Source: a virus. From it: 58,057 nt of DNA. Shown piece by piece: positions 20,924 through 33,193 of this stretch. The notes under the pieces were generated by a model. That model ran no database searches, was not told the DNA's origin, and saw nothing but the letters and a program-made list of their open reading frames with translations. Position 1 is the first letter of the stretch; every line of letters begins with the position of its first letter. The position numbers and the translations under genes were made by a program. The stretch is taken from the IMG/VR virus record IMGVR_UViG_3300018914_000025. One strand, written 5' to 3'.

Positions 20924-21076
20924 TTACCAACCGGGCCCCTCTTGGTTTGTTGTTACCGGAGTAGGCTCAGTGATCGGAAGTGGTGCGACGCCCCAGCCAG
21001 GTCCTTCTTGTGCAGAAGCGCTGACCGGAATAACGAGCGCGATCGCAAACAATACGAAAATCAAAAGTTTTTTCAT
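20924..21076 (-). CDS. Secreted signalling pro-peptide (50 aa) with two QEGPGW copies
   Basis: Hand translation: MKKLLIFVLFAIALVIPVSASAQEGPGWGVAPLPITEPTPVTTNQEGPGW*. AGGTGG RBS; signal peptide with an ASA-type cleavage site; terminator downstream; 74 nt after the RRNPP-like receptor. It falls below the ORF-track size cutoff. Confidence 0.7.
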   Translation of the reverse strand: MKKLLIFVLFAIALVIPVSASAQEGPGWGVAPLPITEPTPVTTNQEGPGW

Positions 21077-21150: not shown

Positions 21151-22497
21151 TTATACGATACAAATTGTATCGTACTTTCTCGCCCTTTCGTACTCCTCCA
21201 TGGCAAATGTACATCTATCGATCTGTGCAGGTGTCGCGAAAGTAATATTTTTCAATAAAAGCGTCACACATCGGATAGTAACCACCGGCATCTTAAACCG
21301 GGCGGACAAGTCAATAGCATACAGCAGATCCTCAATAGCTGACCCCCCCATGCCAACATGAAAAAAATACTTTGACCTGTAATACCTGAAGTATGCAATG
21401 TATTTCGCGCTTAGTGGGTCGTTAAGCGAATGCAGCTGTCTAATTTCCGCATCAAAATCCGATAAAAATGCTGGGATCTGTTCATACTTTTCAAAATTTA
21501 CAAGGGACTTAATTACAGTTGTCAAATTTCTGCAACGGTTCGGCTGTTGCTTAATAAAGGCCATCAAGGCTTCAATGTTTTCCGTGTTTCCCGCAGAAAT
21601 CTCCACCGTCATTCGATTGACTGCAGCAAGGGAGCTGTAGAGATCACTTACTCCTTTTGAATACTCATCGATCAGCGCTAACGCTGTTTTGAAATCCTTT
21701 TTCTCTTCTGACACAGCGCCTAGATAGAAAAGTGCGCCTGCATACGATTCGACGTCCATACCGACCGCAATTCCAGCTAATTCCTTTGCGTATTTTTCCA
21801 CACCGCTCCAATGTTCGATTGCGTAAAATACCGCTAGAACACGTAGGTAAGCCTCCGTTTGCATTAGACCTTTCAGGTGTTTTAAATACTCTGTGAGTTT
21901 AACAGCTGCCTCATAAGCCGTGATCAAGTCATGATCCCTGACTATTAAAAAACTTCGATAAAAACTGACAGCGAGGTCTGGAGACATCCGATTTGACTCT
22001 TTCTCTATGACTTTGTTATAAAACCGCAGCGCCTCGTCATGATGACCTTTTCCGAACAGCGACTCCGCGATGGCGAAGATGATGTCGAGGTTTCCAGGGA
22101 TGGCTGTAAGCTCATTCATGGCCTCTTCTACAAGATCCGTCAAACCCAGCTCGTAGCATCGTACCACGAACTCCTCTGTTTTTTTGCGCAGCCGCTTCCC
22201 TCCCTTCCCCCAACACTCACCACTGAACAGGTGGTAAAAATACCCGGGTGGAAGTTCCAGCGCCTCTGTGACTGCATCCAGGACCTCCAGCGAGAATGTA
22301 CGACTGCCTCCCAGCATGCGGCTCAGATCCGACTGGCTCACATTTTTCTGCGCGGCAATGGAGACAGGCGACACCCCTCTTTCTCGCATCGCGTTTGTGA
22401 TTTCCTCCCGTAACGTGCTGTATCGGCGGTCACTCGTTAACGTCATCCCCAAAACAAAAAACCCCCTCGCTTGCCATCTTGTACACACATTATACAA
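21151..22497 (-). CDS. RRNPP-family (AimR/NprR/PlcR-like) peptide receptor: N-terminal HTH plus TPR-like repeats
   Basis: N-terminal XRE-type HTH (VSPVSIAAQKNVSQSDLSRMLGGSRTFSLEVLDAVTEAL), then about 370 aa of helix-repeat sequence rich in A/L/Y/E. The pro-peptide gene lies immediately downstream. The real start may be the internal MTLTSDRR (22446). Confidence 0.75.
   Translation of the reverse strand: MYNVCTRWQARGFFVLGMTLTSDRRYSTLREEITNAMRERGVSPVSIAAQKNVSQSDLSRMLGGSRTFSLEVLDAVTEALELPPGYFYHLFSGECWGKGGKRLRKKTEEFVVRCYELGLTDLVEEAMNELTAIPGNLDIIFAIAESLFGKGHHDEALRFYNKVIEKESNRMSPDLAVSFYRSFLIVRDHDLITAYEAAVKLTEYLKHLKGLMQTEAYLRVLAVFYAIEHWSGVEKYAKELAGIAVGMDVESYAGALFYLGAVSEEKKDFKTALALIDEYSKGVSDLYSSLAAVNRMTVEISAGNTENIEALMAFIKQQPNRCRNLTTVIKSLVNFEKYEQIPAFLSDFDAEIRQLHSLNDPLSAKYIAYFRYYRSKYFFHVGMGGSAIEDLLYAIDLSARFKMPVVTIRCVTLLLKNITFATPAQIDRCTFAMEEYERARKYDTICIV
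21157..21171. promoter_or_regulatory. GATAC-N5-GTATC palindrome, site 8b (GATACaaattGTATC)
   Basis: Perfect half-sites with extended arms TACGATAC..GTATCGTA; overlaps the last receptor codons (..DTICIV*). Confidence 0.6.
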
Positions 22498-31420: not shown

Positions 31421-31762
31421 TCAAGTCTTTTCGACTTTCACGATTCGGGCAACGTCAATCCACCAGAAATCGTCATCGTTTACCAGCTTGATCTGCCGGC
31501 GAGAGGCGTCAATACGCTGTACCCATCCCCACGCGCGCTCAATGCGGCCAAGGTGCCCTTTGATCGGCTTGAACCAAGAGACGCTCACCGCGAAGTCGTG
31601 CCGCACCGAATCGTACAGCGTGAGGTTCATTTCGGCGAGCTCGTCGTCCTCCAGGATAGGCTGCGTGACCAGCGTCTTTTCATAAGCATGCTGCGCGAGC
31701 GCTTCGGCATGCTCCGGAAGGAAAAAGGCCATCGAGCCGAAGATGTCATCAATTTTTCCCAT
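31421..31762 (-). CDS. YolD-like protein
   Basis: FFLPEHAEAL...PILEDDELAEMNLTLYDS...VSVSWF...GRIERAWGWVQRID...IKLVND...IDVARIVKVE matches the YolD-like pattern. Confidence 0.6.
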   Translation of the reverse strand: MGKIDDIFGSMAFFLPEHAEALAQHAYEKTLVTQPILEDDELAEMNLTLYDSVRHDFAVSVSWFKPIKGHLGRIERAWGWVQRIDASRRQIKLVNDDDFWWIDVARIVKVEKT

Positions 31763-31946
31763 GACGTTCCTCCAGCCAGCCGATCGAAATCAAGTCGCGA
31801 ATGACTTCCTCCGGGCACTCAGACCGTCTACCAGAGCGAATATACTCCATCGCCACCAGATGCTGCGGCGTCAATACAGGCAGGAGCTCCAGACGGCCGT
31901 CAACAACAGCACTGATTCTTTCCATGAGACCACCCTTTACGAACAT
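31749..31946 (-). CDS. hypothetical protein
   Basis: 65-aa ORF overlapping the YolD-like gene start by 14 nt. Confidence 0.4.
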   Translation of the reverse strand: MFVKGGLMERISAVVDGRLELLPVLTPQHLVAMEYIRSGRRSECPEEVIRDLISIGWLEERHGKN

Positions 31947-31993
31947 TTGTTCCTATTGTAGACCACGGAAAGAAAAAAAGAAAGCCCCACTTT

Positions 31994-32299
31994 TCAGTGG
32001 GACCACCCGCCTCCGGGATCCAGTTGCATTTTGTCGTGGGGTGCGCCTCCGTTACCTTCTGGAGGACCGGAGAGCAGGGGAGTGTATCCCCGCCCTTCAT
32101 CCAAAAGCAAACGGCCATAACCAGGACCACCATCTGAAAACACGCGATCGTATCCGGGTCCGTCATCCAGCAAGAGTCGACCATACCCAGGACCGGAATC
32201 CAGAGAGACTCGATCGTGCCCGGGACCACCGTCAAGCTGCCAACCAGGGCCGCCATCGAGACTCCAGCCGGTCCCGCCTTCCATCCGTGCTTCTACCAT
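31994..32299 (-). CDS. Gly/Pro repeat protein with about 7 degenerate D-G-G-P-G-[WY] units
   Basis: MVEARMEGGTGWSLDGGPGWQLDGGPGHDRVSLDSGPGYGRLLLDDGPGYDRVFSDGGPGYGRLLLDEGRGY...DPGGGWSH; AAGGCGGTGA RBS; no signal peptide. Confidence 0.5.
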   Translation of the reverse strand: MVEARMEGGTGWSLDGGPGWQLDGGPGHDRVSLDSGPGYGRLLLDDGPGYDRVFSDGGPGYGRLLLDEGRGYTPLLSGPPEGNGGAPHDKMQLDPGGGWSH

Positions 32300-32353
32300 A
32301 CTATCACCGCCTTTTTTCTCTATCATACAGCTATGCCAGAAAATAGAAAAGAG

Positions 32354-32376
32354 CCCCCGGGAAAAAACCCCGGGGG
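32354..32376 (-). terminator. Rho-independent terminator after the lysis cassette
   Basis: Minus strand CCCCCGGGG-TTTTTT-CCCGGGGG followed by CTCTTTTCTATTTTC. Confidence 0.7.
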
Positions 32377-32575: not shown

Positions 32576-33193
32576 CTATCGATTTTGAGGTCGCTGGCCC
32601 GAGACTATCCGCAAGATGTCGGCGATCTCCCCGATCATTTTGCGCTTGCTCTCAGGTTCTTCGTAATACTCTTCTTTCAGCCAGGTGATATACTGATTCG
32701 CTTTCTCGACTGACAGGATCGGCGCTGGTGTCTCTTTGGCAAAATACTGCTGCAGATAGGCGATCGGATCCGTGTCAGACCCCCAGCCGCCGCTCGGTGA
32801 ACACTTCAGTCGAACCTCGTAATGCAGGTGCGGCCCCGTGCAGTGAGAAGGGGGCGTCATGCCCTGGTTGCCGATGATCTGGCCGTACGCTACGTGATCG
32901 CCGACCTTTACAGCGATGTGGTCAAGGTGAGCGTACATATGCTGCACGCCGTACTTGTCCTTGATGGCTACGACCTTTCCGAAGTTTCCGTATCCGGTGC
33001 CTGTAACGCCTGCAGGGATTTCGTCAGCAAAGATTACGACACCCGGGACAAACGCTTCGATCGGCGCGTTTCGACCTCCGGATTTCTTCACCAGATCAAT
33101 CCCGGTGTGTTTCTCTGACTTGCCACTGACCGGCGAAGTCCTGGGGCCGTATGGGCTGGTTACGCGATACGTGTTGAGAAGATCAAGACTCAT
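32576..33193 (-). CDS. Peptidase M23 endolysin
   Basis: M23 zinc motifs HTGIDL and HLHYEV; lies between holin-like genes. Confidence 0.8.
   Translation of the reverse strand: MSLDLLNTYRVTSPYGPRTSPVSGKSEKHTGIDLVKKSGGRNAPIEAFVPGVVIFADEIPAGVTGTGYGNFGKVVAIKDKYGVQHMYAHLDHIAVKVGDHVAYGQIIGNQGMTPPSHCTGPHLHYEVRLKCSPSGGWGSDTDPIAYLQQYFAKETPAPILSVEKANQYITWLKEEYYEEPESKRKMIGEIADILRIVSGQRPQNR

Follow-up and report, generated by a model that had tools for sequence, protein, structure and literature searches.

Why would a phage encode a small protein made of repeated units that resemble the peptide signal of a receptor encoded elsewhere on its own DNA? The question is raised by a 101-aa open reading frame (ORF) on the minus strand (31994..32299) of the viral record IMGVR_UViG_3300018914_000025, a stretch of 58,057 nucleotides that is called the window here. 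The original prediction held that the units echo QEGPGW, the motif of the window's secreted pro-peptide, and considered three options: coincidental low complexity, an intracellular mimic or sponge for the window's own receptor, and a precursor released on lysis and cut into ligands, i.e. a signal of lysis. We show that the ORF belongs to a previously undescribed protein family that is restricted to Brevibacillus prophages, and that this conserved, leaderless protein is built from units equal to the signals of one clade of RRNPP receptors. As to its function, the reading we favour, at slightly less than an even chance, is that of a poly-ligand without a leader that would be cut into receptor-binding hexapeptides, mainly for the receptors of other phages.

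The window protein reads M-EGGTGW-SL-DGGPGW-QL-DGGPGH-DRVSL-DSGPGY-GRLLL-DDGPGY-DRVFS-DGGPGY-GRLLL-DEGRGY-...-GPPEGN-...-DPGGGW-SH and contains every unit listed in the original prediction (EGGTGW, DGGPGW, DGGPGH, DSGPGY, DDGPGY, DGGPGY, DEGRGY and DPGGGW). The motif G[PTRG]G[WYH] occurs eight times, compared with 0.30 occurrences expected from composition, and none of 100,000 shuffles reached eight; TRF detected a period of 33 nt in the ORF. An in-frame ATG at 32326, given as the start in the ORF list, falls inside a leader that is conserved at the DNA level in homologues. Translation is not likely to begin there; the second ATG is preceded at correct spacing by the putative ribosome-binding site (RBS) GGCGGTGAT (32303..32311, minus strand, 3 nt before the ATG, as read from the sequence). 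Inspection of the sequence shows no hydrophobic stretch at the N-terminus, in agreement with the earlier statement that a signal peptide is absent. The window is listed in four DNA runs only, all from one biocrust study, and in no RNA dataset.

Searches with the window protein alone did not reveal its relatives. No match was found in a set of 5.8 billion proteins, phmmer against 1.84 billion representatives returned unrelated repeat proteins only, tblastn and blastn against a phage collection and a search of IMG/VR with the single protein gave no match, and no family was assigned by Pfam (E up to 1), PHROGs (up to 0.1) or NCBIfam (up to 1). The family was detected only via scans of genome contigs and profile searches. 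The first relative was found in a Brevibacillus fortis prophage by scanning species genomes, and profile searches then revealed members in 8 of 60 Brevibacillaceae species genomes as well as 32 database proteins, none with a Pfam domain and all of those with a source name being a Brevibacillus 'hypothetical protein'. In total, approximately 35 homologues were obtained, all from Brevibacillus prophages. A hidden Markov model (HMM) built without the window member ranked the ORF first among 1095 six-frame ORFs of the window (E 1.5e-7), and the window protein shares 31-46% identity with family members. The pairwise ratio of nonsynonymous to synonymous substitution rates (dN/dS) across the family was 0.2-0.3. 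The HMM match, the homologues and the dN/dS values, together with a conserved RBS, -10-like element and flanking terminators described below, thus indicate that the ORF is a real gene.

Family proteins are 68-204 aa long and acidic (isoelectric point 4.1-5.1), rich in Gly (17%), Pro (10%), Asp plus Glu (15.5%) and Trp (4.8%), with a Trp-to-Trp spacing of mostly 8-11 residues. They consist of 6 to approximately 20 hexapeptide units separated by linkers of 2-5 residues, which usually end in Leu, Phe or Met. Two unit classes were distinguished, [D/Q/E/H]-x-G-x-G-W and D-x-G-E-R-[G/P], represented by 139 W-type and 90 GER-type units in 33 proteins, and individual proteins combine GER-type, GxGW-type and GPPEG units. 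Units are preceded by L, F or M in 62-63% of cases; W-type units themselves end in Trp. None of the members has a hydrophobic N-terminal segment. Typical members start with M[T/A]YHILKD and end with ..LH; the window member has neither, starting with MVEARM and ending with WSH, and it has no GER unit, the nearest being DEGRGY. AlphaFold2 gave a mean predicted local distance difference test (pLDDT) score of 46 and 45 with two alignments, and the ESM Atlas model reached 0.42, indicating either a disordered protein or a fold invisible to the predictors; the models suggest that the family proteins are probably disordered. One genome contains a member in two identical copies, both with the same frameshift (G009:C1 3106023-3106372 and 5663924-5664273; L024, L025), suggesting that a prophage region with a decayed gene has been duplicated.

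The cassette that the units recall comprises an RRNPP-type receptor with helix-turn-helix (HTH) and tetratricopeptide repeat (TPR) domains (21151..22452, minus strand; called product 433 aa) and a secreted pro-peptide of 50 aa (20924..21076, minus strand). The latter consists of a signal peptide, QEGPGW, a 21-residue linker, QEGPGW and the stop codon, with the first copy directly after the ASA cleavage site and the second forming the C-terminus. Behind a receptor homologue of 47% identity (L084, L097, G026:C2) lies a pro-peptide with two copies of EDGPGW, and the 8-mer DGPGWAMK, found in this relative's pro-peptide in the context EDGPGWAMK, is common to five family members. The second unit class is represented in a prophage of genome G054, which carries an integrase, a receptor and a pro-peptide composed of signal peptide, DGGERP, linker and DGGERP, and at its opposite end, after the endolysin, a member of the repeat family. 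Phage Emery gp61 has the same layout with HGGIGW (signal peptide, HGGIGW, linker, HGGIGW). A survey of receptors in the 60 genomes yielded the further C-terminal peptides DIGERG (twice in its pro-peptide), DFGERS, EEGPRW, WLGTGW, DFGMNW, GYGEGW and SVGEGW. In the pro-peptides, the C-terminal copy is mostly preceded by L, F, Y, M or W.

When 32 receptors were placed in a maximum-likelihood tree, those with unit-like peptides and those with HGxGG-type peptides fell on opposite sides of a single branch (100/100 support). The GER-type and the GPGW-type receptors each formed a clade, and the window receptor grouped with the unit-matching receptors. At least seven of the unit-like systems are located on phages, prophages or phage-plasmids related to the window. 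The receptors and their peptides have diversified in parallel (L162-L173, L093, L095): one subclade has D-x-G-E-R-[G/P/S] peptides, another x-x-G-P-G-W, and others G-I-G-W, G-T-G-W, G-E-G-W and G-P-R-W. Many pro-peptides of the clade are 'double-headed', the first copy directly following the signal-peptidase site and the second forming the C-terminus. Scans for unit-like C-termini gave little beyond this. The 30 GPGW-stop matches examined in the 60 genomes were noise, while a match outside those 30 (G026:C2:8775) is the EDGPGW pro-peptide; GGxGW-stop matches in these genomes were mostly the C-terminus of a conserved housekeeping gene, the GERP-stop scan was too noisy for use, and QEGPGW-stop matches in IMG/VR were noise.

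To quantify the resemblance between units and signals, the first nine distinct C-terminal hexapeptides of the clade were scored against the 2589 distinct 6-mers of the repeat family (GYGEGW and SVGEGW, found later, were left out). Four were present exactly (QEGPGW, EDGPGW, DGGERP and DIGERG), two matched at five of six positions (HGGIGW vs DGGIGW; DFGERS vs DLGERS), three at four positions and none at three. For random hexapeptides of family composition, the probability of an exact match was 4e-4 and that of a match at five or more positions 0.02-0.03. Twelve chromosomal HGxGG-type peptides fell on this null distribution, with no match at six or five positions, three at four and nine at three. 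The window member itself has near matches to signals of the clade only: an exact GPGW core is found in only one of its units, and QEGPGW in none. The proposed echo of QEGPGW hence holds as a family-wide match to the peptides of the clade and not as an exact match within the window. The first option of the original prediction, a Gly/Pro-rich low-complexity ORF that happens to resemble the peptide, might draw on the observation that the family HMM alone scores the window pro-peptide at only E 0.8. Because the match extends over the family and to the peptides of a whole receptor clade, with six of nine exact or at five positions and the chromosomal controls at null, and because the gene is under purifying selection, we exclude coincidence for practical purposes and consider it extremely improbable.

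We then considered how the gene is embedded, comparing 14 homologous loci, across which the non-coding parts are more conserved than the coding sequence. Upstream of the gene in the window lie, on the same strand, genes for an XhlA-like protein, a holin-like protein, an M23 endolysin (32576-33193) and a 60-aa holin-like protein. The last is followed by a terminator-like G+C hairpin (32376..32354) and the T-tract CTTTTCTATTTTCTGG (32352..32337; whole element 32337..32376, minus strand), which closes the lysis operon; across the loci, the stem sequence varies, yet a hairpin always precedes the T-tract GCTTTTCTATTTTCTGG. Approximately 20 nt before the start codon lies the -10-like element TGTATGAT (TATGAT; 32322..32329, minus strand), identical in 13 of the 14 loci although the coding sequence diverges. 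The promoter scan made no call at this element because its -35 is weak; its conservation suggests that it acts as a promoter element. The RBS form G(A/C)GGTGAT is kept in 12 of the 14 loci. A downstream terminator hairpin (31983..32004, minus strand) has the last codons and the stop as its 5' arm (..CCCAC TGA AAAGTGGGG and a T-run), and the corresponding arrangement CTCCAC-TAA-AAAGTGGGG plus T-run is found in 12 of 14 loci, with the last two codons (Leu-His) forming part of one terminator arm. The conserved C-terminal Leu-His is therefore partly explained by the RNA, whose structure may constrain these residues as much as the protein does; P0019 has lost the stop, and translation runs on into the terminator (..EKVGLFFF). 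The window thus carries the conserved cassette in full: T-tract, TGTATGAT, RBS, stop inside the terminator and position after the endolysin. The cassette may be a moron (an autonomous unit of prophage cargo): terminators are located on both sides, and the conserved -10-like element is a candidate promoter.

The repeat gene follows the endolysin in every locus, directly or after one or two cargo genes, while the type of endolysin varies (M23, GH25, Amidase_2 or glucosaminidase/Amidase_3). The original prediction was right in placing the gene, with its own RBS, beside the lysis cassette and after the terminator of the lysis operon. This constant position would suit a late-accumulating protein that escapes on lysis and whose cleavage yields peptides for the phage's own receptor in neighbouring cells, thereby boosting its own signal or reporting lysis. 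The lack of a signal peptide and a unit grammar fitting the phage's own peptide class (DGGPGW vs QEGPGW) would also be in line with this reading, and extracellular processing of multi-copy pro-peptides is known (PMC11343458). However, the lysis operon ends at a terminator in front of the gene, which is headed by a conserved leader of its own; moreover, a single receptor needs no mixed unit classes.

The distribution of the two genes also speaks against a function in the phage's own signalling. The presence of the repeat gene is not tied to that of the receptor cassette: the cassette is found without the repeat gene in phage Emery, G026:C2 (G061), G024 and G055, and the repeat gene is found with no clade receptor detected in B. 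fortis, G003, G007, G009 and G011. Leaving aside the window and G054, G009 is the only locus with any receptor close to the repeat gene, at a distance of approximately 3-3.3 kb; this receptor belongs to the chromosomal type, is paired with an unrelated pro-peptide and adjoins a non-ribosomal peptide synthetase gene. The closest complete relative of the window, G026:C2 (44,610 bp; matching IMG/VR G061 in receptor-region sequence), is the only complete relative with a GPGW cassette; it has kept receptor and pro-peptide but has 113 nt and no repeat gene between the endolysin and the orf65 homologue. The repeat gene is thus best regarded as mobile cargo. None of the family members from Logan samples came from the sample with the L084 cassette. 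Where gene and receptor do occur together, they are 9.5 kb (window) and 42 kb (G054) apart, and both repeat proteins lack the exact hexapeptide of their own phage, an observation of little weight given only two cases. Taken together, a booster of the phage's own signal or a reporter of its lysis appears improbable.

G026:C2 (L196; G061 corresponds to L099-L101) is a separate 44.6-kb contig of a Brevibacillus genome. It has in common with the window XRE and LytTR genes, the receptor/pro-peptide module, ParM/ParR and the orf65/YolD genes, a gene set that supports a phage-plasmid lineage. A homologue of the window's AgrC-like kinase was not found in G026:C2 by ORF comparison at E 1e-8.

The favoured reading, a poly-ligand directed mainly at other phages, would proceed as follows. 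The protein would be expressed from its own insulated cassette and cleaved after the hydrophobic or aromatic residues that bracket each unit, either by cytoplasmic proteases within the lysogen or by extracellular proteases after lysis. The freed hexapeptides would occupy RRNPP receptors, mostly those of other phages that are incoming or reside in neighbouring cells, and this occupancy would imitate a high-signal state and tilt the choice between lysis and lysogeny, or that of induction, to the advantage of the resident prophage. A poly-ligand is supported by three observations: the units are bracketed by residues preferred by proteases, the pro-peptides are alike in this respect, and proteolysis of multi-copy pro-peptides is documented, with extracellular proteases freeing several pheromones from tandemly duplicated phage Phr pro-peptides (PMC11343458). 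The main targets are probably receptors of other phages, because units of different receptor subclades are mixed in one protein and the prophages that carry the gene mostly lack such a receptor. That the mixed peptides of a resident prophage bias the decisions of other phages is plausible, since foreign AimR receptors are known to be repressed by arbitrium peptides that are not their cognates, which steers incoming phages into lysogeny (PMC13220667). A mimic or precursor role, as proposed originally, accordingly survives as the best reading; its restriction to the phage's own receptor fits poorly, given that the closest complete relative lacks the gene and most carrier prophages lack the receptor.

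Carried further, the family could be a broad-spectrum signal jammer, a leaderless string of many phages' signals held inside the lysogen. An RRNPP-guided phage entering the cell or residing nearby would then read a false high signal and be steered away from killing the host. This stronger version we regard as rather unlikely.

Several points weigh against a poly-ligand. RRNPP receptors normally bind free peptides of 5-10 residues. Cleavage at the unit borders would therefore be required, for which the flanking residues are suggestive. The window copy is the least signal-like member, with Tyr or His replacing Trp in four units and neither GER units nor an exact QEGPGW, and only the window and the G054 prophage carry both gene and receptor. 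At the level of the family, the C-terminus (..LH) falls outside the unit pattern. Hydrophobic linkers in alternation would be equally at home in a beta-hairpin repeat fold, which predictors may miss owing to the shallow alignment and the out-of-register repeats.

Some of these points fit the main rival reading, a shared origin without a shared function. Pro-peptide genes may have been assembled from units of the repeat gene, or the reverse, with the present role of the protein unrelated to signalling; it would then be ordinary cargo behind the endolysin, for instance a disordered multivalent binder of another partner via its Trp motifs or a small beta-hairpin repeat protein. The independent occurrence of gene and receptor cassette is consistent with this, as is the use of the post-endolysin slot as a general cargo site with varied genes, and the M[T/A]YHILKD start, the GPPEG units and the C-terminal LH have no counterpart in known signals. 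It is hard to see, however, how exact hexapeptides of two independent classes could be kept by ancestry at 35-50% identity unless they were under the same selection, and if the units equal ligands, fragments of the protein would be ligands anyway. We judge common descent alone to be doubtful as an explanation.

Alternatively, the undigested disordered protein might bind RRNPP receptors through its internal units and act as a sponge. The motif match applies equally here, and a cytoplasmic, multivalent protein would be well suited to such a role. In solved RRNPP complexes, the termini of the peptide are held inside a closed TPR pocket, which an internal unit of a longer chain would not easily fit; we consider an intact sponge quite improbable. 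Sponge and lysis signal, the two framings of the original prediction that centre on the phage's own receptor, both fit poorly with a protein that lacks an exact QEGPGW and belongs to a family mixing units of different subclades.

Other candidate functions were tried and set aside. For an RTX-like calcium roll, there was no profile match and the Asp residues are out of register; choline- or cell-wall-binding repeats (e.g. CW_binding_1) likewise gave no profile match. No conserved enzyme gene is present nearby as would befit the precursor of a ribosomally synthesized and post-translationally modified peptide. The protein is acidic like a DNA mimic, but has no predicted fold. For a Trp-sensing leader peptide, dN/dS shows selection on the protein sequence itself. 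A presumed likeness to GW-type Argonaute hooks or colicin TolB-box mimics was dropped.

Directly after the terminator of the repeat gene in the window, a LexA/Cheo-type box, CGAACATTTGTTCC (31940-31953, minus strand), is located beside a TACAAT -10 (31955-31960) and precedes a small ORF and a YolD-like gene (genes 31421-31925, minus strand). Most homologous loci have a similar arrangement 3' of the repeat gene, often with two boxes around TATAAT. Box, small ORF and YolD look like an SOS-controlled module of a small winged helix-turn-helix protein and YolD. The listed start (31946) of the 65-aa ORF (31749-31946, minus strand) lies inside the LexA box, while its homologues start at the equivalent of Met8 (MERISAV.., 31925), after AAAGGGTGG; its true product is thus probably 58 aa long.

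The slot between endolysin and repeat gene has changing cargo (L027 7794-9308; L090 1299-2473; L091 514-2521; L029 10231-12116; L086 8927-9739), including a protein of approximately 290 aa with a DUF4325 or STAS-like protein, a pair of 344 and 293 aa, and a DUF3800 protein. The slot resembles a hot spot of accessory genes, perhaps ones with a role in defence. Several prophages carry, just past the repeat/YolD block, an ATP-dependent DNA ligase gene or a fragment of one (L024 11334-11795; L027 13818-14543; L029 8568-9395; L092 5527-6375; L094 10769-11635), which could be an attachment target or conserved cargo.

Among the closest known systems are the Phr pro-peptides of phage Rap-Phr pairs (phi105, phi3T): they contain several (near-)copies of the mature hexapeptide per polypeptide, with up to eight reported, separated by short spacers (LKLA in Phr-phi105) and released by proteolysis (PMC11343458). 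They differ in that they have a Sec signal peptide, adjoin the receptor gene and serve one receptor, whereas the repeat family is leaderless, is not linked to a receptor gene, has 6 to approximately 20 units for at least two receptor classes and is located after the endolysin. Measured against RRNPP pro-peptides in general, the family thus lacks the Sec signal peptide and the neighbouring receptor gene, but contains, as a family, mature receptor peptides exactly. The double-headed pro-peptides of the clade (window, Emery gp61, G054, G024) have the same or nearly the same hexapeptides (QEGPGW, EDGPGW, HGGIGW, DGGERP, DIGERG) and a hydrophobic residue before the C-terminal copy. They are, however, 43-54 aa long and contain a signal peptide and exactly two copies joined by a Pro-rich linker, whereas in the repeat proteins numerous different units alternate with hydrophobic linkers.

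Arbitrium crosstalk (PMC13220667) follows the logic proposed here, in that peptides of a resident element hit non-cognate receptors and favour lysogeny. There, the peptide is the ordinary secreted AimP of a complete AimR-AimP pair, whereas we propose a leaderless protein of many units that is dedicated to this purpose. Leaderless communication peptides (LCP/SIP with RopB; PMC10518010) are likewise quorum-sensing ligands without a signal peptide, but they are single short peptides encoded beside an Rgg-type receptor and are neither repeat arrays nor phage cargo. AloR-AloP of Paenibacillaceae (PMC7425212) resembles the clade in having HTH and TPR receptors with C-terminal 6-aa signals; the Alo-type chromosomal peptides of Brevibacillus end in HG[VIMFA]GG, match no repeat unit and belong to receptors of a separate clade. 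A leaderless, receptor-unlinked array of multiple specificities is not found among these nearest known systems. Full-text literature searches gave no description of such a protein, in keeping with the initial remark that no described equivalent was known.

Peptide communication of phages has been understood in terms of receptor/pro-peptide pairs, and crosstalk between such pairs was shown only recently. If the favoured reading is true, a leaderless gene that joins the signals of several receptor lineages would add a participant of a new kind, one that could supply counterfeit or shared signals; should the stronger version apply, it would represent a strategy of defence or competition by means of counterfeit phage signals. 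The match provides a testable link from an orphan prophage gene family to a defined receptor clade and offers candidate ligands for ten or more phage receptors that await characterisation. It also suggests that other orphan repeat proteins of prophages may hide ligand arrays.
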